Source: a virus
Lineage: Duplodnaviria > Heunggongvirae > Uroviricota > Caudoviricetes
Length of the DNA stretch: 26,071 bases
Reading direction: 5' to 3' (one strand)
Virus record (IMG/VR): IMGVR_UViG_2909309443_000007
The notes under the pieces are model-generated. The model worked only from the letters and a program-made list of their open reading frames with translations, ran no database searches and had not been told where the DNA came from. A program made the position numbers and the translations under genes. Shown here piece by piece: positions 1,428 through 24,246 of this stretch (positions are counted from its first letter, which is position 1; each line of letters begins with the position of its first letter).

Positions 1428-1453
1428 TTATCTAAAACCTCGGTTTACAGGAA
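1428..1453. promoter_or_regulatory. Invertase crossover site (gix/hix-like), site 1
   Basis: Reverse complement TTCCTGTAAACCGAGGTTTTAGATAA matches the recalled gix consensus at 25 of 26 positions. Lies between the pin remnant and the silent tail-fibre segment. Confidence 0.7.
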
Positions 1454-2437
1454 ACGGTAAGTCAGGCTTCTGGCGCATTACAGAAAAACCAGAACGGCGC
1501 AGATATTCCAGGAAAAGATACCTTCACCAAAAATATTGGTGCCTGCCGCGCATATAGCTCATGGCTGAATATTGGTGGCGATAGTCAGGTCTGGACAACC
1601 GCGCAATTTATTTCGTGGCTGGAGAGTCAGGGGGCATTTAACCATCCTTACTGGATGTGCAAAGGCTCATGGGCTTATGCAAATAATAAGGTCATTACAG
1701 ATACAGGTTGCGGAAATATTTGTCTTGCAGGTGCTGTGGTGGAAGTTATTGGCACTCGCGGCGCAATGACCATACGCGTTACTACGCCGAGCACGTCCAG
1801 CGGTGGCGGAATTACTAACGCTCAATTCACTTATATTAATCATGGTGATGCTTACGCTCCTGGCTGGCGACGAGACTACAACACGAAAAACCAGCAGCCT
1901 GCATTTGCTTTAGGGCAAACAGGACGCAGGGTCGCAAATGATAAAGCTGTTGGCTGGAACTGGAATAGCGGTGTTTATGATGCAGATATCAGTGGTGCAT
2001 CGACATTAATCCTCCACTTCAATATGAATGCGGGGAGTTGCCCTGCTGTACAGTTCCGCGTGAATTACAGGAACGGCGGTATTTTTTATCGTTCAGCGCG
2101 TGATGGTTATGGCTTTGAAGCTAACTGGTCAGAGTTTTACACCACAACACGCAAACCCTCTGCGGGGGATGTTGGTGCATATACGCAGGCAGAATGTAAC
2201 TCAAGGTTTATTACAGGTATTCGCCTTGGCGGTCTGTCATCTGTTCAGACATGGAAAGGCCCCGGCTGGTCTGACAGGTCAGGTTATGTCGTTACGGGTT
2301 CAGTTAACGGAAACCGTGATGAATTAATTGATACAACTCAGGCAAGGCCAATTCAGTATTGCATTAATGGGACGTGGTATAACGCGGGAGTATTTAACGA
2401 TGATGCACTTAAAAAACATTACTGCTGGCAACCCTAA
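1436..2437 (+). CDS. Silent alternative tail-fibre C-terminal segment (Sv'-like), no start codon of its own
   Basis: Reading frame opens inside site 1 and runs without stops to 2437. Would be fused in frame to the Stf constant part only after inversion. Confidence 0.6.
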   Translation, partial: NLGLQETVSQASGALQKNQNGADIPGKDTFTKNIGACRAYSSWLNIGGDSQVWTTAQFISWLESQGAFNHPYWMCKGSWAYANNKVITDTGCGNICLAGAVVEVIGTRGAMTIRVTTPSTSSGGGITNAQFTYINHGDAYAPGWRRDYNTKNQQPAFALGQTGRRVANDKAVGWNWNSGVYDADISGASTLILHFNMNAGSCPAVQFRVNYRNGGIFYRSARDGYGFEANWSEFYTTTRKPSAGDVGAYTQAECNSRFITGIRLGGLSSVQTWKGPGWSDRSGYVVTGSVNGNRDELIDTTQARPIQYCINGTWYNAGVFNDDALKKHYCWQP

Positions 2438-2933
2438 AACAAAAGAGCAATACCAGCTAACAAAGCAATTTAACATCAAATGGCTTTATTCAGATGATGG
2501 AAAAAACTGGTATGAGGAACAAAAGAATTTCCAGCCAGACACTTTGAAAATGGTCTATGACCATAACGGCGTTATTATTTGTATTGAAAAGGATGTTTCA
2601 GCAATTAATCCAGAGGGTGCAAGCGTCGTTGAATTACCTGATATTACAGCAAATCGCCGGGCTGATATTTCGGGGAAATGGATGTTCAAAGATGGCGTAG
2701 TGATAAAGCGAACTTATACCGAGGAAGAGCAGAGGCAACAAGCGGAAAATGAAAAGCAAAGCCTGTTGCAACTTGTCAGGGATAAAACCCAGCTATGGGA
2801 CTCACAGCTACGGCTGGGCATCATTTCCGACGAGAATAAACAAAAATTAACCGAGTGGATGCTCTATGCGCAGAAAGTCGAATCTACAGACACTTCCGGC
2901 CTGCCAGTAACGTTTCCCGAACAACCAGAATGA
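2400..2933 (+). CDS. tfa: Alternative tail fibre assembly protein (tfa')
   Basis: N-terminus [22 protein letters not shown] is homologous to the minus-strand tfa at 2962..3489; C-terminus diverges. GGAG Shine-Dalgarno upstream. Confidence 0.7.
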   Translation: MMHLKNITAGNPKTKEQYQLTKQFNIKWLYSDDGKNWYEEQKNFQPDTLKMVYDHNGVIICIEKDVSAINPEGASVVELPDITANRRADISGKWMFKDGVVIKRTYTEEEQRQQAENEKQSLLQLVRDKTQLWDSQLRLGIISDENKQKLTEWMLYAQKVESTDTSGLPVTFPEQPE

Positions 2934-2936
2934 GAG

Positions 2937-2964
2937 AAGGCCCGCTATCGGGCCTTAATTTTTA
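2937..2964. terminator. Hairpin between convergent tfa genes, acting as a terminator for the plus-strand tfa'
   Basis: AAGGCCCG-ctat-CGGGCCTT followed by a T-run on the plus strand. Confidence 0.5.
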
Positions 2965-3489
2965 CTCTGGTTTTTGTGGCCATTCAGGATTTGCCGTATC
3001 CACACGGCTGACCAGAACACTGTAGCGTTCCCATGCTTCCAGTCGTGTGCGTTCCTCGTCTGTTGCCATATTCAGCCTGACAGCGCGTTCCAGCGGTTGG
3101 ATGACTGATTCAGCTTCGGAAAGCAATGCGGCCTTTTGTGATTCGGCCTGTTGTTGTTGCTCGTCTGCCGTATAAATCCGTTTAACCACAGCTCCGTCCC
3201 TAAACATCCACTTACCGGAATCATCAGCGCGGCGGTTGGCTGTAATATCTGGAACCTCAACGACGCTATAACCTTCAGGGTTAAGCGTGGAGGCATCTTT
3301 GGTGATGGCGACAATAATATTATTTGCATCGTAAACAATCTTTATTGTGTCTGGCTGAAAGTTTTTCACTTCCTCATACCAGTTTTTACCGTCTTCTGTA
3401 TATAACCAGATAACATCAAAATTCTTTGTTAGCTGATATTGTTCTTTTGTTTTTGGATTTCCAGACTTAATATTTTTTAAATGCTGCAT
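2962..3489 (-). CDS. tfa: Tail fibre assembly protein
   Basis: 175 aa, Mu U/lambda Tfa-like. Immediately downstream of stf on the same strand. Confidence 0.8.
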
Positions 3490-3492
3490 AAA

Positions 3493-6400
3493 TTACACCT
3501 GTACGACGTTATACCATGTGCCATTGATGTATTTTTGTATTGGCCTGAAGATGGCTTCATCATCGCCATCTACTTCACCAATGATTCTTAATCCGGTAAT
3601 TGCGTGTCCGGCTTTTTCATAACGACCACCACGCGCCATCAATTGAACAACACGCGTACCCAGGCGAACATCTTTCACATAGCGGGAATCAAAATTCCCC
3701 CAGTTGCTGGGCTGTATCTGACCGTTAACAGCAAATGTTACTGAGTTATCTGTATTTCGCTGACTATAGAAATGCCAGCCTGAATCATCACCAAGCTCTG
3801 CAACAGTTGGTCTTGATGAAGTGCCCCATAAATTAAACCCTACGTTCTTCGTGGAGTTGTTGGAGCTGGATAGCGAGAATTTTTTACTATCACCTGCCTG
3901 AATGTTTTTAAAAGCAATAGCCACTCCATTCTGAAAGCGGAATACTCGCTGACTATTAGCGTAAACATCAAGAATACCATCACCATTCTGTTTAAATCCG
4001 GTATCATTATCACCAAGAACAATTGAGTTCCCACCCAACGCGTTATTCGTGCCAAGTGCCAGCCCGCCATCAATCCTGGCACCATTACCAACAGACACAA
4101 CTCCTGTTCTTAAGTTGATGTTGAATGGCCTTAATGGCCCAATATCTCCATTTTCACCCTCATTTTCTCGTGTAGGGATGATATGCAGGTGTTCTTCAGA
4201 ACGGCGAAAAATAGCACCAAAGGATGAATTAAAAATCCTCAGTGCATTGACTGTCGATATTTTTACTTCACTGCCGAAAAGGGCTTTAACAAGAACATAC
4301 AAAGCACCCCATTTAAGATTCATCAGGTCTTTTGTTGTGGTGCCATGGCGGCTTCTCCATTTGAAATATTCATTGCCGTTGTCGCCTGTTTCAAACCACA
4401 TGTATGAATCAGTATCGCTGTCGGCATCATTTTTAAATCCAATCTTCGCCCAGTCAGTATTTCTAATCCAGGCAAGGATTGAGTCGTTTGCAAAAGTAAG
4501 CCCACCGGACAAGGTATCGCCATTCTTTTGCACGGCGTTCCTGGCCCTGTTTACCGTTTCCTGTAAACCGAGGTATTCGATAACAGCGGCAACGGTCGAT
4601 TTCGCAAGAATATCCCGCCCGACTTTTGTCAGGGTTGCCAGGCTGGCGACATCATTCCCCGTAAAATACGGAAACCTGTCTGCCGCAGTAGCAAGCCCGG
4701 CCAGCGCCGTCAGGGTGGCATCTTTCGGTTGCTTACCCGCAAGCGCGTTAGTCATGGTGGTCGCAAAATTCGGGTCGTTTCCCAGCGCCGCCGCCAGCTC
4801 GTTCAGCGTATTCAGTGCGTCAGGCGACGAGTCTACAAGTGCGGCAATCGCGGCCATCACATAAGCCGTGCTTGCGATCTGAGTATTATTAGTCCCTTTT
4901 GGCGCAGTTGGCGTTGTTGGCGTTCCGGTCAGCGCAGGACTGTTTAAAGGCGCTTTCTTGTTCGTTTCATCCATTACCGCCTTAACCGCTTTTGGTGTCG
5001 CAGCCAGCGTTTCAGACGGGCTGTTAGTGGCGCTACTGAGCTGAACTATCCCTTTTCGTGCCGTCGTTGCATCCTGAGCGGTATATTTTGCGTTAGCAAG
5101 GTCATATGCTGCCTTTACTGCCTTTGGTGTTGCCGCCAGTGACTCGGAAGTGCTGTTGGTCGCACTGCTGAGCTGAACCACACCTTTTTTCGTCGTGCTC
5201 GCATCTTCCAGAGATACGGCATCAGCAATATCCTCTGCCCGTTTTGCTGCTGTTTCGGCACGCGTTGCCGCGGATTCAGCAGCAACTTTGCTCTGAGATG
5301 CAGCCGTCGCACTGCCTGCCGCCTCTGATGCTTTCGTTGTTGCTGTCGTGGCACTACCTTTCGCTGCTGACGCTTGTCTGGTCGCCTCATCTTTTGAAGC
5401 AGACGCAGATGATGCCGATGACGCCGCTGAACCAGCGGACGATGCGGCTGCCGCCTTAGAGGAAGCAGCATTGTCTGCTGAAGTCTTTGCATTTGTTTCA
5501 GAGGTTTTTGCTGCAGAAGCAGACCTCGCTGCTGCAGTGGCTTGCTTAGTGGCTTCGCCAGCCTTCGTTGTGGCTGTTGAAGCGGATGATGCGGCGCTTT
5601 CTGCCGATTTTCCGGCGGCGGTGGCACTGGCTGAGGCCTGCCCGGCACTTGTTGACGCGGCACTGGCCGACGATGCAGCCGCTGTTTTTGAACCTGCCGC
5701 AGCTGAGGCACTCTGTGCTGCTGCCGTTTCAGAAGACTTAGCGTTTGTCTCAGACGTCTTTGCCGCCTTCGCGGAATTTCCTGCCGCCGTTGCCGAGGAA
5801 GCTGCACTACTGGCACTTGATGATGCATTCGTTTCTGATGATTTCGCTGCCTCTTTTGAGGCCGCCGCCCCCCGTGCCGAGGTGGCAGCTTCTGACGCCT
5901 TCGTGGTCGCTGTGGATGCAGAAGTGGCTGCCGATTTTTGTGATGCTGCGGCATTCGTTTCTGACGTTTTCGCGGCACTGGCGCTGGTAGCTGCCGCGCT
6001 TTTTGATGACTCTGCAGCAGCAGCACTTTTCGCTGCTTCACTGGCCTTTGTCGATGCCGTTCCTGCGCTGGAAGACGCTGACTGAGCCGACGACGCGGCC
6101 TGTCCGGCTGACGTGCTGGCTGCGCGTGCTGAGCCTGCAGCATCAGTCGCATGGGTTGCCGCCTCACGGGCTGATGTGCTGGCATCACTGGCTGACTTCT
6201 TCGCGGCTGCCGTGTTCTGTGCCACTGCGGACGCGTTACGCGCCACCTCTTCCACCATCAGTTCAAAACGGCGCAGTGCCTCCGGACGGGCATCATCCTC
6301 CGTCATGGCACCGAGAAAATCATTCAGCGTACCGGGTCGGGAATCTTCATACACGGTGATGGTCCCGGCATGTGACGGCGGGAATCCGTCCACCAACAGA

Positions 6401-6582
6401 ATAACGCTGTACTGACCGTACTCAACGTCCATGCTGTAACGCCCGGCTTCATCCGGATTTTCTGAGGCCAGCGTGTTCACCACCACCGTGGTGCTGTTAC
6501 GTTTTGCTTTCAGCTGGATTGTGCAGTTCTGTACTGGTTTTCCTGTGCCGTCTTTCAGTACACCTGAAATCTTTACTGCCAT
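3493..6582 (-). CDS. stf: Side tail fibre protein (lambda Stf-like) with a long Ala/Ser/Thr-rich shaft
   Basis: N-terminus MAVKISGVLKDGTGKPVQNCTIQLKA… matches recalled lambda Stf. Contains the LNTLNELAAALGNDP and GIVQLSSATNS motifs. Distal part lies inside the invertible segment. Confidence 0.85.
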   Translation of the reverse strand: MAVKISGVLKDGTGKPVQNCTIQLKAKRNSTTVVVNTLASENPDEAGRYSMDVEYGQYSVILLVDGFPPSHAGTITVYEDSRPGTLNDFLGAMTEDDARPEALRRFELMVEEVARNASAVAQNTAAAKKSASDASTSAREAATHATDAAGSARAASTSAGQAASSAQSASSSAGTASTKASEAAKSAAAAESSKSAAATSASAAKTSETNAAASQKSAATSASTATTKASEAATSARGAAASKEAAKSSETNASSSASSAASSATAAGNSAKAAKTSETNAKSSETAAAQSASAAAGSKTAAASSASAASTSAGQASASATAAGKSAESAASSASTATTKAGEATKQATAAARSASAAKTSETNAKTSADNAASSKAAAASSAGSAASSASSASASKDEATRQASAAKGSATTATTKASEAAGSATAASQSKVAAESAATRAETAAKRAEDIADAVSLEDASTTKKGVVQLSSATNSTSESLAATPKAVKAAYDLANAKYTAQDATTARKGIVQLSSATNSPSETLAATPKAVKAVMDETNKKAPLNSPALTGTPTTPTAPKGTNNTQIASTAYVMAAIAALVDSSPDALNTLNELAAALGNDPNFATTMTNALAGKQPKDATLTALAGLATAADRFPYFTGNDVASLATLTKVGRDILAKSTVAAVIEYLGLQETVNRARNAVQKNGDTLSGGLTFANDSILAWIRNTDWAKIGFKNDADSDTDSYMWFETGDNGNEYFKWRSRHGTTTKDLMNLKWGALYVLVKALFGSEVKISTVNALRIFNSSFGAIFRRSEEHLHIIPTRENEGENGDIGPLRPFNINLRTGVVSVGNGARIDGGLALGTNNALGGNSIVLGDNDTGFKQNGDGILDVYANSQRVFRFQNGVAIAFKNIQAGDSKKFSLSSSNNSTKNVGFNLWGTSSRPTVAELGDDSGWHFYSQRNTDNSVTFAVNGQIQPSNWGNFDSRYVKDVRLGTRVVQLMARGGRYEKAGHAITGLRIIGEVDGDDEAIFRPIQKYINGTWYNVVQV
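4558..4583. promoter_or_regulatory. Invertase crossover site (gix/hix-like), site 2, inside stf, inverted relative to site 1
   Basis: TTCCTGTAAACCGAGGTATTCGATAA on the plus strand. Encodes the YLGLQETV motif of Stf; site 1 encodes NLGLQETV in the silent segment. Confidence 0.7.
4975..5195. repeat. Imperfect tandem duplication (about 85-bp units) inside stf
   Basis: Two similar DNA blocks encoding the duplicated peptide KG(V/I)VQLSSATNS.SE(S/T)LAATPKAVKA. Confidence 0.6.
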
Positions 6583-6593
6583 ATTCACCCCAC

Positions 6594-6619
6594 AAAAAAG
6601 CCCGCCTGAACCGGCGGGC
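6594..6619 (-). terminator. Rho-independent terminator downstream of lom
   Basis: Minus strand: GCCCGCC-ggttca-GGCGGGC followed by TTTTTT. Confidence 0.55.
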
Positions 6620-6646
6620 TGTCATAACACTGTGTTACCTGGCTAA

Positions 6647-7245
6647 TCAGAATTTATAACCGACACCCACGATGAACCCGTCAGTGCGCCAGTCACCACT
6701 GCCGGAGCCTTCATAAGCAAGGTCAATGGCCACGGATTCGGTCGGGTTAAACTGCACGCCAGCCCCCACGCCAGAGACGTGTTGCTGTGGCGACCGTCAT
6801 CACTTCCGGTCAGCACATCGTGCGTTTTCCCCTTGTTGTCAGTTACGCGAAGATAATCCCCGGAGAAAGTCGACACACGGCTGTAAGCCACACCCGCCAT
6901 CGCATACGCGCTGAACCATTCATTCACGCGCACAGACGGCCCCGCCATCACGCTGAACCAGCGGTTACGCACGGAATCTTCATGCCAGCGGGTATCGCTG
7001 TAATGCGTTTTTTGCTCATCTTTGGCATTGGCATAACTGAATGACGTCACCAGCCCCAGCGTGTCCGTAAATTCATAACGGTATTTCACGTTAATGCCCT
7101 TCAGGTCATCACTGCCTGGCATATCAGTATGGGTCTGAAGATACCCGGCGCTTAGTGTGGACTGATGCTCTGCTGCGCTCGCTGGCGTACCAGCGGCAAC
7201 CAGCCAGACTACTGCGGACAGAATAACAGCACATAATTTACGCAT
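6647..7245 (-). pseudogene. lom: Lom/Ail-family outer membrane protein, frameshifted near the C-terminus
   Basis: Signal peptide and Lom-like body. The canonical C-terminus …DWRTDGFIVGVGYKF is in another frame after a C5/G5 run at about 6763-6767. Confidence 0.7.
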
Positions 7246-7269
7246 AATTACCTCTCGCTTTTCTGCAAT

Positions 7270-7293
7270 AAAAAAGGCACCATTTCTGGTGCC
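7270..7293 (-). terminator. Rho-independent terminator downstream of the J fragment
   Basis: Minus strand: GGCACCA-gaaa-TGGTGCC followed by TTTTTT. Confidence 0.55.
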
Positions 7294-7312
7294 CGTATCT
7301 GGGTTATAAAAT

Positions 7313-9163
7313 TCAGCTAATCGTGATGCCTGTAGTGGCTTTCTTCATCACCACAACCAGCAAATCGCTGATACTTGCTGTGGGATACCAGTTATTTACC
7401 AGCCATGCTGACACCGAAAACTCCAGTGTCATGTGACCGTGACCGGCAGGCATATCAATAACGCCACTGTAAATCAGCGTATTATCCAGCGCGGTACGGT
7501 TATAAATTTCAGCACCGTTTTTCCGCACTATCAGACGGCATGAGGAGTAAATATCAGTATGCTCTCTCTCATGCTTAGCGCCACTGAATGCCACCGCCGG
7601 AATAACAATCTGCCGGTCAAACGGCTGATCGTCATAAACCCTGACGGTAATGGTTCCTGATGGCCACCGCTCCGGTGCACGGGAGTCCCGGGGGAAAGCT
7701 TTGCCCACTGTTTTAACGAGATCGCCTTCAATCTGGTTGGCGGACAGTTTTCCCAGAACCCGACAGTTCTCGTTAATCGTGACGTTGTTGAGCGTCCCGG
7801 AGTTCGCATTCACGTTACCGCTGATATCGGCATTTTTCGCCGTCAGCCGCCCGTCCGGTGTCAGGGAAAATGCCGGAGGATTACCGCCGCTGGTAATGGT
7901 GGGAGCCGTCAGGCGTTTCAGGAACACTTCGTTCATGAATATCTGATCGCCCTGACCAACAAACATCGGCTTTGTGTTGCCATTCGCAGGATTAATCATC
8001 GCAATCCTGTCTGCCGCCAGCAGCACCTGACTCTGCATGCCGTCAGGGGTGTTCTCAATACCGGCACCAATACCCGCGATATAAAGGCGTCCGTCCTGCA
8101 TCTGCTGCAGCTTCACAGCCCACATGCTGTTCAGGTTATTATTTGTATCAACCTGAACCTTCTGTATCTGCTGAATTGCCGCACTCTGGTCTTCCAGTTT
8201 CTTATTGACGGTCTGTGTGATTTCATTGCTGACATCCGTAATGGATGTCCTGATTTCAGCCAGGTCAGGCGCAAGCTGACCGTTATCAATCTGCGTCCAC
8301 AGCTCCTGAGCCAGATGGGTTTTCCCTATCTCGCCTTTGAAAAAATCCAGATAGCCGGATGCGTCATCACTCGGCTGACCAACAGCCTCCACGAATGCCG
8401 ATTTGCCAACGGTGTTCACACTGCGAACGTAAAAATAATAATCATGGCCCGGTTTGATATTGATACTGGCGGCTATCCAGTACAGCGCCGTGCCAAGATA
8501 GCGGGCTGTGGTTTCAACCTGCCTGATATCCGCAATCCGCTTTTCCGAGAACCAGAACTCAAACTGTACCGTCGGATCATAAACGGCAAGATGCGGCGTG
8601 GCGGTTATCTGAAAATAGCCCGGCGTCAGCTCAATCCGCGACGGCGCTGCCGGTGCGGCAATCCGGAACGATACCGACGCCGGATCGCCCTGCTGTCCCC
8701 ATGCATTTACTGCCCGGACTGTCAGCCTGTAGTTCCCCAGAGCCAGTTGTGTGAAGCGGTAAGTGGTTTCCGTCGTCCGGGCCGTGCTGACCAGCCGCTC
8801 ACTGCCGTCATCCGCTGCCACGGTCAGGCGAAGCATAAAGCTCACCCCCTTCACCACCTTCGGCGTGTCCCAGCGGGCCAGCACCTGGTATTCCCCGCTG
8901 TCTGCGGTGACTTCGGCGGTCAGATGCTGCACTGCTGGCGGCGTGACACCATTCACCGTGCCGCTCTGGTTACCGTCAAAGTGCGCCCCGTTATCCACGA
9001 TGGCTTCTTTCTCCGGTACATGCTGCACTGCAGTGATGGCATACGTACCGTCGTCGTTCTCACGGATACTCACACAGCGGAACAGGCGCTGGCGCAGCGT
9101 CGGCAGCTTCAGCCCCCACACGCTGTACTCGGCAACGCCGTCAGGAACCCGACTCACTTTCAC
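7313..9163 (-). pseudogene. J: Host specificity protein J, C-terminal fragment of roughly 615 codons (5' half deleted)
   Basis: C-terminus …[49 protein letters not shown]… matches recalled lambda J. Upstream frame joins an L remnant out of frame. Confidence 0.8.
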
Positions 9164-9164
9164 C

Positions 9165-9239
9165 TTCCCAGAGCACCACGCTGGCCGACTGCTCCGCACG
9201 GGTGCATTCATTCAGTGTTTCCTGCCGGATATCCTGCAT
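9165..9239 (-). pseudogene. L: Tail protein L, N-terminal 25-codon remnant
   Basis: ATG overlapping the M stop (ATGA) encodes [25 protein letters not shown] as recalled for lambda L, then jumps into J. Confidence 0.6.
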
Positions 9240-9568
9240 CAGTTCACCACCTGTTCAAACTCTGCGCTGAACTCAACACGCAGCATACTGACCCGCGACG
9301 ACCATTTTGCGCAGGTCACCTTTATCTGCCGCCACTCATAAGGCGGCGTCCACAGAAAGGCTTTCCAGCCCCCGTGCTCAGCCAGAAACGACTCCAGCGC
9401 CGTGGCCTCCTCACGGGAGACAGACAGCGTCACGCTGTACGTTTTCAGGTCAGCGTTCAGCCCGGCAGGCGCTCGCTGAGAATAGCCATCACCAAAGCGC
9501 ACCTTTCTTACGGAAGGGGCCGAAGCCACATCCATACCGGGTTTCGCTTTCCAGCGGAAGGTCTTCAT
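9239..9568 (-). CDS. M: Tail tip assembly protein M
   Basis: 109 aa, near-identical to recalled lambda gpM (MKTFRWK…EFEQVVN). Confidence 0.85.
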   Translation of the reverse strand: MKTFRWKAKPGMDVASAPSVRKVRFGDGYSQRAPAGLNADLKTYSVTLSVSREEATALESFLAEHGGWKAFLWTPPYEWRQIKVTCAKWSSRVSMLRVEFSAEFEQVVN

Positions 9569-12039
9569 CGTCCACCTCCGGAGAACAGACCACCATCGCG
9601 CATCTGTGCCTGAATTTCATCACGGGCCCCCTTACGGGCCATGTCATACACTGCCTTCATCATCTGTGGACCTGGCAGACCATTCGTACCGTCGTTCTGA
9701 ATCACCACGTGATTGTTCTGATTAAAATTAATGCCTTCCGCCCGCCGCATCTGCGCCGGACTTCCGGCACCGCCCACATAACCACCTTCCGCATAGCCGC
9801 GCATCAGCCGGTAGAGATTTCCCACGCCAATCCGGCTGGTTGCCTCCTTCGTGAAGACAAATTCACCACGGTGAACAATCCCCGCTGGCTCATATTTGCC
9901 GCCAGTTCCCGTAAATCCCCCGGTCGCAAAATGGAATTTTGCCGCAGCAGCCTGAATGGCTGTACCGCCTGACACTGATGCGCCACCACCGGCAGCACCG
10001 CCAATGGCGCTGCCGATACTCCCGACAATTCCCACCATTGCCTGCTTAAGCAGAATTTCTGTCATCATGGACAGCACGGAACGGGTGAAGCTGCGCCAGT
10101 TCTGCTCACTGCCGGTCAGCATCGCCGCCATATTCTGTGCAATACCATCAAAGGTCTGCGTGGCAGCACTTTTAACCTGCGACATACTGTCCGTGGCGCT
10201 CTCTTTCCACTCACTCCAGCCTGACCTGAGGCCTGCCATCCAGCTCCCGCGAAGCTGGTCTTCAGCTGCCCAGGTCTTTTTCTGCTCTGACATGACGTTA
10301 TTCAGCGCCAGAGGATTATCGCCATACTGTTCCTTCAGGCGCTGTTCCGTGGCTTCCCTCGCTGCCTGCCGGTCAGTCAGCCCCCGGTTTTTCGCATCAA
10401 TGGCGGCCCGTTTTGCCCGTTGCTGCTGTGCGAATTTATCCGCCTGCTGTGCCAGCGCGTTCAGGTGTTCCTGATAGGTGACCTTGTCGCCAAGTGCAGC
10501 CAGCTGGCGTTTGTACTCCAGCGTCTCATCTTTATGCGCCAGCAGGGATTTCTCCTGTGCAGACAGCTGGCGACGTTGCGCCGCCTCCTCCAGTACCGCG
10601 AACTGACTCTCCGCCTTCCACAAATCCCGGCGCTGCTGGCTGATTTTTTCATTCGCTCCACTATGCTGCTCAAGCATTTTTAGTTCAGCTTGTAACGCAA
10701 GAAGAGCTGCATGTGCTCGATCTTCCTGACGCTCTCCCGCAGCGGACTGCTTCGGCTTTTTCAGCGTCGCTTCATAGTCCTTTTTCGCCGCCGCCATCAG
10801 CGTGTTGTAATCTGCCTGCAGGATTTTCCCGTCTTTCAGTGCCTTGTTCAGTTCTTCCTGACGAGCGGTATATTTCTCCAGCGGCGTCTGCAGGCGTTCG
10901 TAAGCCTTCTGCGCCTCTTCGGTATATTTCAGCCGTGATGCCTCAGACTCGGCCCAGTCCTTTGCTGCCATCTCTCTGGCCTTTTCAAGATCGGCCTGCA
11001 ACGTGGCGGCTGAAAGCCCAAGTTGCGCATTCGCTCTGTCCTCCCATGCTCCCCGGAGATTGGCAAGAAATGCTGAGGTTTTACCGCGCCGGTGGCTCCG
11101 GCTCTGATACCACTGCCATTTTTTGTCCGCCTCATCAAAAGCCTTTTCTGCTTTCTCCAGCATTCCCTGGGCAGTGTCCGGGCGACCAATATCCAGCACC
11201 GCATCCCACATGGATTTGAATGCCCGTGCTGTCCTGTCTGCCCAGGTCTCCAGCGTGCCCATGTTCTCTTTCAGGCGGAGGGTCTGGTCATCAAACCCTT
11301 TCGTTGCGGCCTCGTTCGCCGCCTGCAATGCCCCGGCTTCATCTCCGGAACGCTGCAACTGAGCAACATACGCAATCTGCTCCGCCGTCACGTTATGGAA
11401 CTGACGTGCCATCGCTGTCAGTCCCGACGTCGGGTCTGTGGTCAGCTTCCCGAAGGCTTCAGCGACCTTGTCCACCTCCACGCCGGATGCAGAGGAGAAA
11501 CGCGCCACACTCTGGCTGATCGCCTCAAACTGCTCACCACCACGCACACCGGCATTCACCAGCGCCGTCAGTGACTCGCTGGTCTGGTTAAACGTCAGCC
11601 CTGCCGCCTGCCCGGCTCTGGACAGGACCAGCATACGATCTGCCGTCAGTCCCGCCTGATTGCCGGAAAGGACCAGCGTTTTGTTGAAATCGGACAGGGT
11701 TGAGTTGCCCTGATACCAGGCATACGCCAGCGCACCGGTCGCCACCGCCAGCGAGGTGGCCCCCACCATCGGCAGGGTGATCGCACCGGCAAGCCCCCTG
11801 AACATGGGGATCATCCCGCCGAAGGAGTCCTTCACCTGACCACCCTGTTGCAGCAGGATCAGCCACGGACTTTGCCCGCCTGCAAGCTGCGTGGCCACGT
11901 CAGTGAACTGTGCAGGCAGCATACGCATGGCGGCTTTATACTGTCCGACGGAAATGGCCATTGCGGCGGCACCGGGCACCGCCGTTCTGCTGATACGGCT
12001 GAGGTTTTCAACGGCCTGCTCAAGACCTTTTATGGCCAT
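9565..12039 (-). CDS. H: Tail tape measure protein H with its N-terminus replaced by the first 29 codons of Z (in-frame Z'-'H fusion)
   Basis: MAIKGLEQAVENLSRISRTAVPGAAAMAI matches recalled gpZ N-terminus; from SVGQYKAAMRMLPAQFTD… it matches recalled gpH to the C-terminus. 824 aa, shorter than lambda H. Confidence 0.75.
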   Translation of the reverse strand: MAIKGLEQAVENLSRISRTAVPGAAAMAISVGQYKAAMRMLPAQFTDVATQLAGGQSPWLILLQQGGQVKDSFGGMIPMFRGLAGAITLPMVGATSLAVATGALAYAWYQGNSTLSDFNKTLVLSGNQAGLTADRMLVLSRAGQAAGLTFNQTSESLTALVNAGVRGGEQFEAISQSVARFSSASGVEVDKVAEAFGKLTTDPTSGLTAMARQFHNVTAEQIAYVAQLQRSGDEAGALQAANEAATKGFDDQTLRLKENMGTLETWADRTARAFKSMWDAVLDIGRPDTAQGMLEKAEKAFDEADKKWQWYQSRSHRRGKTSAFLANLRGAWEDRANAQLGLSAATLQADLEKAREMAAKDWAESEASRLKYTEEAQKAYERLQTPLEKYTARQEELNKALKDGKILQADYNTLMAAAKKDYEATLKKPKQSAAGERQEDRAHAALLALQAELKMLEQHSGANEKISQQRRDLWKAESQFAVLEEAAQRRQLSAQEKSLLAHKDETLEYKRQLAALGDKVTYQEHLNALAQQADKFAQQQRAKRAAIDAKNRGLTDRQAAREATEQRLKEQYGDNPLALNNVMSEQKKTWAAEDQLRGSWMAGLRSGWSEWKESATDSMSQVKSAATQTFDGIAQNMAAMLTGSEQNWRSFTRSVLSMMTEILLKQAMVGIVGSIGSAIGGAAGGGASVSGGTAIQAAAAKFHFATGGFTGTGGKYEPAGIVHRGEFVFTKEATSRIGVGNLYRLMRGYAEGGYVGGAGSPAQMRRAEGINFNQNNHVVIQNDGTNGLPGPQMMKAVYDMARKGARDEIQAQMRDGGLFSGGGR

Positions 12040-12050
12040 ACATCCCCCTT

Positions 12051-12306
12051 TCAGCGGCGACGGTTAACGGCAGGCGGTACGCCCCGCCCAAGCCAGAGAT
12101 GACAGCTTCCGCCATCATCCGGCGAAATCCGGTCTATCCAGAAGTTTTCCTCACCGATGGTCAGCGTGTCGCCGCGCCGCAGCTGCCGCACATCATCAGT
12201 CCGGACAAACAGGGACGGGCTGGAGCCTTCAACGCGCACGCCCTGTCCGGCATAGCTGATATTTTCAGGGTCATCAAAAACACCACGTATCACAGCACCG
12301 GACTGC

Positions 12307-12336
<30 letters not shown>
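12051..12336 (-). pseudogene. Head-tail joining protein FII, C-terminal fragment
   Basis: MGTSATMTSGEQSGAVIRGVFDDPENISYAGQGVRVEG…PPAVNRRR matches recalled lambda FII from about codon 23. Joined directly to the truncated portal frame. Confidence 0.7.
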
Positions 12337-14177
<1,841 letters not shown>

Positions 14178-14424: not shown

Positions 14425-14501
14425 TGGCGCGTTGTACTGGATTCGAACCAGTGACCGATTGCTTAGAAGGCAATTGCTCTGTCCGGCTGAGCTAACAACG
14501 C
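14425..14501 (-). tRNA. tRNA-Arg (anticodon UCU)
   Basis: Hand-folded cloverleaf: acceptor GCGTTGT/ACAACGC, anticodon loop CTTCTAA, T-arm GGTTCGAATCC, discriminator G plus CCA. Confidence 0.85.
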
Positions 14502-14598: not shown

Positions 14599-14674
14599 TG
14601 GTGGCCCTTGCTGGATTTGAACCAGCGACCTGGCGATTATGAGTCGCTCGCTCTCACCACTGAGCTAAAGGGCC
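14599..14674 (-). tRNA. tRNA-Ile2-like (anticodon CAU; Met not excluded)
   Basis: Hand-folded cloverleaf: acceptor GGCCCTT/AAGGGCC, anticodon loop CTCATAA, T-arm GGTTCAAATCC, CCA end. Closely resembles recalled E. coli ileX. Confidence 0.8.
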
Positions 14675-15773: not shown

Positions 15774-15922
15774 AGATCAATAAGCACTTCTCTGATAGGC
15801 TCATACCGCTTTTGCGCAAAGCAGATGGGCCTGAGGTTTGCTTGTGACCCCAACGCATGAGCAGATGGCTGGCAGGTGCCGCTAACACCCCCAGCCGCCC
15901 ATTACCACAAATTAAAAAGCCT

Positions 15923-18765: not shown

Positions 18766-18921
18766 TTACTCCTCAGGTTCGTAAGCTGTGAAGACAGCGA
18801 CCTCCTTCTGGCCGGTTCGGATTCGTACCTCGCAGAGGTCTTTCCTCGTTACCAGTGCCGTCACTATGACGGTTAAACAGATGACGATCAGGGCGATTAA
18901 CATCGCCTTTTGCTGCTTCAT
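18766..18921 (-). CDS. hok: Hok/Gef-family type I toxin (51 aa), HokD-like
   Basis: MKQQKAMLIALIVICLTVIVTALVTRKDLCEVRIRTGQKEVAVFTAYEPEE is near-identical to recalled HokD. The longer upstream frame is consistent with an overlapping mok; an antisense Sok RNA is expected upstream but was not mapped. Confidence 0.8.
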   Translation of the reverse strand: MKQQKAMLIALIVICLTVIVTALVTRKDLCEVRIRTGQKEVAVFTAYEPEE

Positions 18922-19304
18922 AGCCTGCTTCTCCTTGCCTTTCGGCACGTAAGAGGCTAACCTAGATTTGCCGTTCATAGATTGAGCCTCAGATTAATGT
19001 TAAACGTCTTGCAGGACGCGTAACGTTAACTGGGGCTTTTCTCTATCTGCCTTTTGGTGGCATGCCTGAGACAGATAACCTCAAGCACCCGCAGTAATTT
19101 TACATAAAGGTTATGGTTCCTTTCAATAACTCAACAATTTCCCATCTAAATACTACTCATATAGTCATATAGGCTGGCGATAATTTAAAGATAAGACTCT
19201 CTCTTTTTCTCCACCACATAATGCATTACCAACGCAAAAGTTACCATGGTAATTATATCTTAACGAAAAATACCCCGCGAACATATTCTACTCAACAAAA
19301 AATT

Positions 19305-20784: not shown

Positions 20785-21174
20785 CTATAATTGCACATAA
20801 AAAGACAATCCTAACAATACTCCCATTGTAAGTTGTATATTCTTTCTTATTGTTCCATCTGAACATTTGTACCTTCGTGCTATTGTACGCAAAGATATAC
20901 CTATAACAAAATGAGCGATAATTAACTCATAGTCATCTATTCTATATTGTTTAAGCTTCAACATGCAGGTATCAATCATACGACCTTCATCGTTGCCACA
21001 CTGACGGCGTAATTTCTTACCATGAGGTACTACATCTTTATATTTATCAGCCACTTGCTGCCAGTTGATAGAACTATTTCCAGCTGCAGCCCAAGCCCCC
21101 CCAACTGTCCAAAATATCATATATATTAGCATTGCTATCCACCTTTTTTTTATATTCTTTTTTGAGGCAACCAA
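20785..21174 (-). CDS. Hypothetical protein with a sigma-70 region-4-like helix-turn-helix C-terminus
   Basis: …YELIIAHFVIGISLRTIARRYKCSDGTIRKNIQ… resembles ECF-sigma region 4. Hydrophobic N-terminus. Overlaps the upstream 82-aa ORF by about 100 nt, so a frameshifted single gene is possible. Confidence 0.4.
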   Translation of the reverse strand: MVASKKNIKKRWIAMLIYMIFWTVGGAWAAAGNSSINWQQVADKYKDVVPHGKKLRRQCGNDEGRMIDTCMLKLKQYRIDDYELIIAHFVIGISLRTIARRYKCSDGTIRKNIQLTMGVLLGLSFYVQL

Positions 21175-21310
21175 GAAGCATCCTGGCCATCGTTATTATT
21201 TCTATACTTGTAACTGATTCATAAGCATCAGGAGAAATAATCCTCCCATCACTTAATGCCCTTTCACTAAGATTTGCTATTTCCAATAATCGTTCTTTAG
21301 TTATTTCCAT
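21074..21310 (-). CDS. Hypothetical protein (about 78 aa)
   Basis: AT-rich ORF with GGAG before the second ATG. Could be the N-terminal part of a split sigma-like gene. Confidence 0.35.
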   Translation of the reverse strand: MEITKERLLEIANLSERALSDGRIISPDAYESVTSIEIITMARMLLGCLKKEYKKKVDSNANIYDILDSWGGLGCSWK

Positions 21311-21424: not shown

Positions 21425-21700
21425 TTATGCTTTCTCTTCACTCCGGTATACAAGAATTACAACGTCACCTCTGCTAATCACGCGAGCTGGCTCTCCTGGT
21501 TCTATACTGTCAATATCGAAGGTCTCAAAAAACGCATTCATTGCCTTCTGCCGCTGCGTCTGTTTACAGCGTTTATTCCATTCTTTCAGTAACATCAGTG
21601 ACAGCCACCGCCATGAGCAGAACATGATGTAGCACCAACCAAGAAGCGCCAGCCCCGTATTGAGGGCCGTACCAATCGTCATTGTTGCGTCGATATTCAC
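21425..21700 (-). CDS. Hypothetical small membrane protein (91 aa)
   Basis: GTG-initiated ORF with a hydrophobic N-terminal segment. Confidence 0.35.
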   Translation of the reverse strand: MNIDATMTIGTALNTGLALLGWCYIMFCSWRWLSLMLLKEWNKRCKQTQRQKAMNAFFETFDIDSIEPGEPARVISRGDVVILVYRSEEKA

Positions 21701-21986
21701 TGTACCTCCTCCTGGAAAATAACTGCATGCCCCAGTTTCTCCGCCAGCGCCAGTTCTGCCTTAGCACCTGCTGACCGCTGCCAGCCTTTCAGCATGTAAA
21801 TCGCATCCACACAACGAATCATTGCCATGCAATATCCATGTAGTGCGGCTGTGTCAGCCCATCCGGAAGCACAGCCGGATTTAAAACGGTATGCCCTTCC
21901 CGTTTCAGTTCCTCTTCCGCATTGTGAAACGCCTCACGGTTGAAATTTTTATACCCGGTCATTGGACCGGCGATATAGACTCTCAC
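21697..21986 (-). pseudogene. DUF4406-like lambdoid protein, apparently frameshifted
   Basis: Hand translation gives (M)RVYIAGPMTGYKNFNREAFHNAEEELKREGHTVLNP…MDIAWQ stop, then in another frame …CVDAIYMLKGWQRSAGAKAELALAEKLGHAVIFQEEVQ. Consistent with a 1-bp deletion near 21800. Confidence 0.45.
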
Positions 21987-21988
21987 TC

Positions 21989-22411
21989 TCACGCCATCAC
22001 CTCCTGAAAATTACCCTGATAAAACGCCAGCACTCGCTGCATAACCTCACTCTTCCGGCACTCGCGACAGATTATGTTCTGACGCCTGTCGTAGCGACGT
22101 ATTTCTCCGTCAGGTAATGACCAGATAAGGTCCGGATCAACCGCAGATGGTTTCTTCAGCTTTGCCCTTGAGAGCTTTTTACGGGCATTTTGCCAGTCCT
22201 TACGCGCCTGTTCAGACGGGAATAACCCGTAACCAGAGTTGTATACATCGCCACTGGCAACCAGCTCTCTGGCCAGAACGCTCATCAGATATCTTGTTGC
22301 CCCAGTTTTAGTTTCCAGTTGTCGTAACGTCTCGCGCCCACTCTGGCGTACGAGTTCAACAACCTGCCCTTTAATTTTTTCCCGCTCTTCTTGTGTAAAA
22401 ACTTTTGCCAC
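21989..22411 (-). CDS. Hypothetical phage replication-region protein (140 aa)
   Basis: ORF immediately downstream of the replication initiator. Basic C-terminal part. Confidence 0.5.
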   Translation of the reverse strand: MAKVFTQEEREKIKGQVVELVRQSGRETLRQLETKTGATRYLMSVLARELVASGDVYNSGYGLFPSEQARKDWQNARKKLSRAKLKKPSAVDPDLIWSLPDGEIRRYDRRQNIICRECRKSEVMQRVLAFYQGNFQEVMA

Positions 22412-23593: not shown

Positions 23594-24019
23594 TCAATGC
23601 ACTGCCACAGCATTTCCTGCCGGGCCACCACGGTTCATCTGATTGAAACCGGCGATTGCCACTGCGACAAAATCATCAGCGTCTCTCACCAGTCGCTCCC
23701 GCGTCTCCACCAGCTCCCGAAAATAAGCTGAACTGTGGCTGCGCATTCTGGCCACCAGCAAAGGTGGCATTGCCTTTTCGATCGCTGGTAACAACGCCTG
23801 AATTTTTTCAACTGCATCAGGGGTGTCTTTCTCTATCCAGCGGAAAATTTTCTGGGTATTGCGAGCCAGGGCTTCCGGATGGCTGTCGTCATACAGTTCT
23901 GGGAACGTCATACCCAACTCAAAATAAGCCTGGGTTATTCCAGCTGCTGGAACTTTTTCGCCATCAGGACGCGCCCAGGCATTCATCGCCATGCGGATGT
24001 GTTCATGCTTGATTTTCAT
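23594..24019 (-). CDS. YdaT-like (CII-analogue) protein
   Basis: 141 aa starting MKIKHEHI…, matching the recalled start of Rac YdaT. Sits directly downstream of the Cro-like gene. Confidence 0.55.
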   Translation of the reverse strand: MKIKHEHIRMAMNAWARPDGEKVPAAGITQAYFELGMTFPELYDDSHPEALARNTQKIFRWIEKDTPDAVEKIQALLPAIEKAMPPLLVARMRSHSSAYFRELVETRERLVRDADDFVAVAIAGFNQMNRGGPAGNAVAVH

Positions 24020-24246
24020 GAATCCCCCCCTTGGTTAGAAGGCGGATTATGATCAGAACCGGGAATGACAACCGTCGGTATGTGTAACTCATATTTGAGC
24101 GCCCCGGCAGTGACTGCCTGAATTAGCAACGCCCATTTCCACGGAACCTCTTCCCCCCACATGCTGACTGTGGTTTTTGACGTTCCTAGAACTGCGGCTG
24201 TTTTAACAACTCCGCCAAAATAGCCTAATACTTCTGATTTTTTCAT
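24016..24246 (-). CDS. Cro/YdaS-like helix-turn-helix regulator
   Basis: 76-aa ORF from MKKSEVLGYFGG… Divergent from the CI-like gene across a 91-bp operator region. Confidence 0.6.
   Translation of the reverse strand: MKKSEVLGYFGGVVKTAAVLGTSKTTVSMWGEEVPWKWALLIQAVTAGALKYELHIPTVVIPGSDHNPPSNQGGDS

Follow-up and report, generated by a model that had tools for sequence, protein, structure and literature searches.

A one-base frameshift in the lom gene of an ETEC prophage is probably a homopolymer consensus error

The lom gene of this prophage is interrupted, as deposited, by the loss of one base from a short run of G residues, and comparison with related assemblies indicates that the resulting frameshift is probably a homopolymer consensus error that is absent from the bacterium itself. 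The sequence analysed, a stretch of 26,071 nucleotides referred to here as the window, differs from its relatives in this run by a single base; the difference is private to GenBank record CP024266.1 (assembly GCA_002741515.1, an ETEC chromosome) and co-occurs with other private differences in run length. The cause that we infer for these observations is the consensus calling of long reads: the record would under-call a run of six G as five, which would produce an apparent change of frame after a Trp-Gly pair and append 38 unrelated residues, and in the actual strain lom would most probably be the same intact 199-residue allele that is present in all relatives. The break is easily overlooked, since the shifted frame by chance meets no stop for 38 codons, so that the gene caller reports a normal-looking protein of 200 amino acids.

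The affected gene encodes an eight-stranded outer-membrane barrel of the Ail/OmpX type and lies between J and stf, flanked by a J remnant (7313-9211) and the tail-fibre gene (stf, 3493-6588, minus strand) in the order that is usual for lambdoid phages. Its product begins with a signal peptide that, judged from the sequence, is of the Sec type and ends ...PASA before AE. A putative ribosome-binding motif precedes the gene and terminator-like hairpins lie to either side of it (Table 1), in keeping with a small unit of its own, and a promoter scan of the region upstream of lom found no sigma-70-like promoter above threshold. The neighbouring stf carries about 350 residues of low-complexity repeats rich in Ala, Ser and Thr (...AAKSSETNA..., ...SASAAKTSETNA...), which explain the long spurious ORFs in its other frames and on the opposite strand. 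The Lom protein of phage lambda is a prophage-expressed product with a described link to adhesion; its over-expression protects against lambda-vir, which suggests a role in blocking adsorption (bioRxiv 10.1101/2025.02.28.640651).

Table 1. Positions in the window of lom, its associated signals and the run-length differences from relatives
Feature	Position	Strand	Comment
lom as deposited, 200-aa ORF	6643..7245	-	From the ORF list
Homopolymer run inside lom	6763..6767	-	G5 on the coding strand, C5 on the plus strand; G6 in all relatives
Out-of-frame canonical Lom C-terminus, AGVQFNPTESVAIDLAYEGSGSGDWRTDGFIVGVGYKF + TGA stop (6649-6647)	6647..6762	-	Intact coding
Shine-Dalgarno-like GAGAGG, 5 nt upstream of the lom ATG (7245-7243)	7251..7256	-	Read from the sequence; function inferred
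Terminator-like hairpin + T-run between the J remnant and lom	7275..7294	-	Consensus scan, pattern match only
Terminator-like hairpin (7/8 pairs G-C) + T-run just downstream of lom, before the tail-fibre gene	6599..6620	-	Consensus scan, pattern match only
Run-length difference 2, frameshifts antiterminator Q after residue 71	21096..21102	-	C7 vs C6 in close relatives
Run-length difference 3, intergenic	15888..15892	.	C5 vs C6 in relatives; gene positions from a relative's annotation
Run-length difference 4, last codons of the alternative tail-fibre C-terminal ORF	2386..2388	+	G3 vs G4

Close inspection of the deposited ORF reveals two segments of different origin. Residues 1-162 follow the Ail/Lom family as far as ...NTSLAWG, at which point the protein switches to LACSLTRPNPWPLTLLMKAPAVVTGALTGSSWVSVINSD; the frameshift tail comprises 38 unrelated residues (163-200), ends ...VSVINSD and terminates at a TAG (6645-6643). 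The coding strand reads ...TCT CTG GCG TGG GGG CTG GCG TGC... across the break, the junction being TGG GGG CTG in the window and TGG GGG GCT in the relatives, so that the contraction by one base shifts the frame immediately after Trp-Gly. A reading of the sequence alone (hereafter the sequence-only reading) had located a frameshift at a C/G run in this gene, and the CCCCC found on the plus strand at that position agrees with it. The same reading had proposed that the canonical C-terminus is encoded intact but out of frame, which is also the case: a 40-residue ORF (6647..6769, minus strand) encodes (M)GAGVQFNPTESVAIDLAYEGSGSGDWRTDGFIVGVGYKF followed by a stop and thereby preserves the last 37 residues of Lom, identical in sequence to the C-terminus of the intact 199-residue allele (WP_001393473.1 / P0001) and alignable by HMMER with the ends of lambda Lom (PDB 9wso_C) and OmpX. 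Consistent with this, the Pfam Ail_Lom profile (PF06316, curated cut-off 23 bits) matches the deposited protein over positions 1-164 of 199 (345 bits, E=1.6e-103) and extends to positions 1-199 of 199 only once the frame is repaired (427 bits, E=1.3e-128). The repaired protein also matches lambda Lom (PDB 9wso chain C) with a phmmer E-value of 4.6e-50, and OmpX and Ail with E-values of ~4e-19 to 1e-18.

The damage to the deposited protein had been described as the loss of the terminal beta-strand, which understates it, since 37 residues are replaced and not the last strand alone. In the HMMER alignment the break maps to Gly110/Ala111 of OmpX, a position that we take, from the crystal structure of that protein, to be inside strand beta6. 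If so, the frameshift would remove the last part of beta6, the whole of strands beta7 and beta8 together with the last extracellular loop, and the aromatic Y-K-F signal at the C-terminus. This mapping relies on the OmpX alignment and on the OmpX structure, because a single-sequence AlphaFold model of intact Lom (mean pLDDT 39.5) was too poor to assign strands. The aromatic C-terminal strand itself, ...GVGYKF, continues the frame of the preceding barrel in all relatives and is coded only in the other frame here. Were the frameshift real, the barrel could neither close nor be recognised for insertion into the membrane, and the allele would be null.

To place the break among related alleles, we compared it with other copies of the gene. 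The exact 200-residue frameshifted protein occurs on one contig only, that of CP024266.1 with a length of 4.88 Mb, and the exact intact protein of 199 residues on 134 contigs. All 16 of the assemblies of the prophage checked other than CP024266, a set that combines short-read drafts with long-read genomes contributed by three or more other projects, carry six C in the lom run. The comparison of lom alleles in related prophages, which the sequence-only reading had suggested, thus returned the frame-restoring run of six in every independent assembly checked. Over lom and its flanks (701 bases) the missing C is the sole difference from the relatives. Six other contigs that encode the adjacent 632-residue J-remnant protein likewise have six G in lom; these contigs had been sought as possible short-read assemblies of the same clone, and none of the six represents it, since none carries a substitution at position 9152 that is private to the window.

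Among complete genomes, the closest are those of the Bangladeshi ETEC strains E1739 and E8, and the whole window was aligned to the former. An inverted tail-fibre segment was set aside in this alignment; the four positions at which its boundary repeats differ are what an inversion would leave. Outside it, six differences were found, namely four changes of one base in length and two transitions, of which one (25089) is private to E1739 and the other (9152, synonymous) is private to the window. All four length changes sit in runs of G or C, and at each of them the window is the lone outlier, both against five long-read assemblies, which stem from three or more projects, and against further loci that include short-read drafts. 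Seven runs of six or more G or C are present in the window in their ancestral state and three of them differ in length here, compared with none of 127 A or T runs of five or more. Of the four changes, three disrupt or modify ORFs that the relatives have intact: lom itself, the antiterminator gene Q, which is split into ORFs at 21074-21310 and 20785-21174 (minus strand), and the end of the alternative tail-fibre ORF. The last of these runs has four G in 13 of 13 other assemblies, and the 232-residue product of the altered ORF is on record on the CP024266.1 contig only.

The tail-fibre segment that was set aside is invertible. It spans 1428-4583, has a 33-nt inverted repeat at either end (1428-1460 and 4551-4583) and lies in the orientation opposite to that of E1739 and E8, the rest of the prophage being nearly identical. 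Inversion swaps the cassette of C-terminal fibre and assembly protein that is joined to the stf N-terminus. The enzyme responsible must be another invertase acting in trans, because the adjacent invertase is a remnant of 64-72 residues in the annotations of the relatives.

In mutation accumulation experiments with E. coli, substitutions outnumber small indels by about ten-fold in the wild type and by several-fold in mismatch-repair mutants. A tally of four homopolymer indels to a single private substitution over 26 kb is a poor fit to a real mutational history of this kind, and it is this imbalance that points to long-read consensus error. Out of the three origins proposed by the sequence-only reading (a pseudogene, a sequencing error or an on/off site), the second is accordingly the one favoured, by the private frameshift together with three other private G/C-run changes. 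The DUF4406 and Cro/CI genes of the same prophage carry frameshifts that behave differently: these are also annotated in four other assemblies (E1739, L3_E36, ATCC 43896 and 504838), which suggests that they are older, real pseudogenes, and this sharing among several assemblies is the pattern expected of such genes, unlike that of lom. Converted from E1739, their coordinates are ~21697-21992 for DUF4406 and ~24003-24246 for the cro/cI-like gene.

The identity of the source assembly is in line with a consensus error. CP024266 is bracketed by CP024262, CP024265, CP024272 and CP024277, which two papers attribute to the ETEC study of Smith et al. 2018 and describe as 'generated with PacBio sequencing'; this bracketing suggests that CP024266 may be a PacBio assembly as well. 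Residual errors in bacterial assemblies built from long reads only are mainly errors of homopolymer length (PMC8812927; PMC12007338). In addition, CP024266 is absent from the RefSeq-complete E. coli collection that we searched, and the neighbouring accession ATCC 43896 (CP024278) is present in it.

Several observations count against a consensus error. One concerns the regions of CP024266 that border the window: the left flank, 8,262 bp of core genes from purB to potB, is identical to two other assemblies, and the right flank of 5,239 bp differs from E1739 by one substitution and no indels. An assembly-wide excess of indels is thus not seen in these 13.5 kb. As the core flank, in which runs were counted, contains just one G/C run of six or more, this comparison has low power to confirm or refute an assembly-wide problem. 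A second observation concerns Q. The 78-residue Q fragment that results from the seven-base allele is found on at least 24 contigs, short-read drafts among them, which belong to a prophage lineage differing at 34-35 positions in 5 kb. In that diverged lineage the seven-base allele is, on the evidence of the sequences compared, a genuine polymorphism, and such runs do slip in nature; its existence weakens the argument that all four changes are unique to the assembly.

A third observation came from a census of run length, for which queries of 65 to 67 bases with identical 30-nt flanks were searched against complete E. coli genomes. Records with a lom run of six G number 2936; 26 have five G, 12 have seven and two apparently have eight, so that ~98.7% of the records with identical flanks (2936/~2974) carry six. 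As a control, a C6 run of the core gene phoP departs from six bases in one of 5361 records, compared with 38 of ~2970 for lom. Errors that arise at random in six-base runs are thus uncommon among accepted assemblies, and against this background the lom run is conspicuous. The gene is present in multiple copies (median 2, up to 13 per genome), and its excess over phoP possibly reflects repeats whose consensus and polishing are unreliable, relaxed selection in prophages, or sequence context. About half of the off-length lom alleles group with the batch in which they were submitted, as opposed to their lineage, the rest being scattered singletons. The batches comprise CP028110, CP028112 and CP028116; CP027548 and CP027587; CP100895, CP100981 and CP101005; CP104647 and CP104649; two FDAARGOS records; and, with seven or eight G, CP038328, CP038346, CP038366, CP038394 and CP038414. 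In strain 2013C-4974 of a CDC strain series (NZ_CP027587.1), the NCBI annotation marks lom as frameshifted, and likewise the tape-measure gene of that prophage.

The main rival explanation is a real private mutation, in which slippage during replication removed one base from the G6 run of this isolate and turned lom into a pseudogene of a decaying prophage. Its product, devoid of about two and a half barrel strands and of the C-terminal insertion signal, would not be assembled into the outer membrane. The state of the prophage is compatible with such an event. It is inserted in the potABCD operon between potB and potC, with the integrase adjoining potC and the tail-fibre end adjoining potB, and the region 7313-13752 is a patchwork of deletion remnants composed of the C-terminal 632 residues of J, a fragment of L, and fragments of the tape-measure (824 residues) and portal (481 residues) proteins. 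Capsid, terminase and lysis genes are lacking, although the versions of the prophage in the ETEC strains L3_E36, ATCC 43896 and 504838 have the full set. In a remnant already riddled with deletions an inactivating mutation would cost nothing, and this prophage also carries the older frameshifts described above. The excess of off-length lom runs over phoP fits relaxed selection, and both the genuine seven-base Q allele and the indel-free flanks likewise count in favour of a real mutation. What tells against it is the number of events needed, four independent slippages against a single substitution since the split from near-identical relatives, which is far from the mutation spectra of E. coli described above. 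Moreover, the five-G state is seen in none of the 16 related assemblies and none of the 134 contigs, and the assembly that carries it belongs to a block of long-read accessions and does not appear in the RefSeq-complete collection searched. On balance we regard a real mutation as rather unlikely; if it did occur, it would amount to ordinary pseudogenisation in a dead prophage.

Other genes of the remnant were noted in passing. Two tRNA genes lie on the minus strand (14425-14501 and 14599-14674), one a tRNA-Arg (TCT) and the other a tRNA with a CAT anticodon that is called Met by ARAGORN and Ile in the RefSeq annotation of the relatives. A hokD toxin gene (~18767-18922) and a ydaT-like gene (~23594-24019) were placed from the annotation of the relatives, with coordinates converted from E1739.

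It is very unlikely that the G6 tract is a genuine low-frequency slippage hotspot at which real five- and seven-base alleles bring about a heritable loss, and possibly regain, of Lom, the window being a true off variant. An evolved switch, in which the tract toggles a surface protein expressed by the lysogen and the isolate was caught in its off state (phase variation), appears more doubtful still. The break does fall within a mononucleotide run of a surface-protein gene, shorter (five) and longer (seven, possibly eight) alleles recur in E. coli genomes, and the run departs from its usual length more often than the phoP control does. Against this, the normal tract is just six bases long, nearly all records have that one length and no close relative varies; the off-length alleles are distributed by submission batch or as singletons, as noted; and equal changes occurred in the same assembly at an intergenic run and in Q. 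Nor is the tract conserved within the family, since phage 2G7b has GGGGAG at this place and lambda Lom has Trp-Ser-Ala instead of Trp-Gly-Ala. The on/off site of the sequence-only reading thus finds no support in the census. Were a switch nonetheless at work, it would add to the biology of prophage-encoded surface proteins such as Lom, which has been implicated in adhesion and in the blocking of lambda adsorption.

Recoding, by which a real five-G allele would still yield full-length Lom through -1 ribosomal frameshifting or transcriptional slippage, has a negligible probability: the canonical C-terminus is indeed kept intact in the -1 frame, which is equally expected of a very recent mutation or an error, but UGG GGG CUG is no X XXY YYZ slippery heptamer and its A-site codon cannot re-pair after a -1 shift, five G are short for slippage by RNA polymerase, which needs a G run of about nine or more bases, and nearly all other genomes carry an intact gene in a single frame. 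Programmed frameshifting and transcriptional slippage were both rejected from the sequence alone, on the grounds of the non-slippery junction and the short run.

A homopolymer consensus error consequently remains the preferred explanation, and its main consequence is a practical one. Users of the CP024266 assembly would score lom, the antiterminator gene Q and the tail-fibre variant as pseudogenes, all of which are probably intact, and the record deserves a quality flag in this respect.

Comparison with known systems places the gene and its break as follows. Once the frame is repaired, lom resembles lambda Lom and the Ail/OmpX/PagC family (PF06316) in its full-length match and in its position between J and stf. 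The allele of the window is a common E. coli prophage type that has diverged from lambda Lom, though it aligns over the full length, and it differs from the latter as deposited in having its last 37 residues out of frame. With the poly-G/C contingency loci of Neisseria, Haemophilus and Campylobacter it shares a mononucleotide tract that sets the reading frame of a surface protein. Contingency tracts in those genera are generally eight or more bases long. The lom tract, in contrast, has six bases, with ~98.7% of alleles at one length and no conservation across lom alleles, and because of this length and this uniformity the sequences compared identify it as something other than a contingency locus, lacking both the tract length and the frequent polymorphism of that class. 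The lom copies flagged as frameshifted in RefSeq offer another parallel, in that the five-G allele with identical 30-nt flanks is common to 26 complete genomes, but those copies lie in other prophages and other serotypes. With long-read homopolymer consensus errors the break shares, at the level of the assembled sequence, a one-base change in a G/C run that is private, has companions of the same kind and breaks genes that are intact in relatives; it differs in that the 13.5 kb flanking the window are free of such changes.
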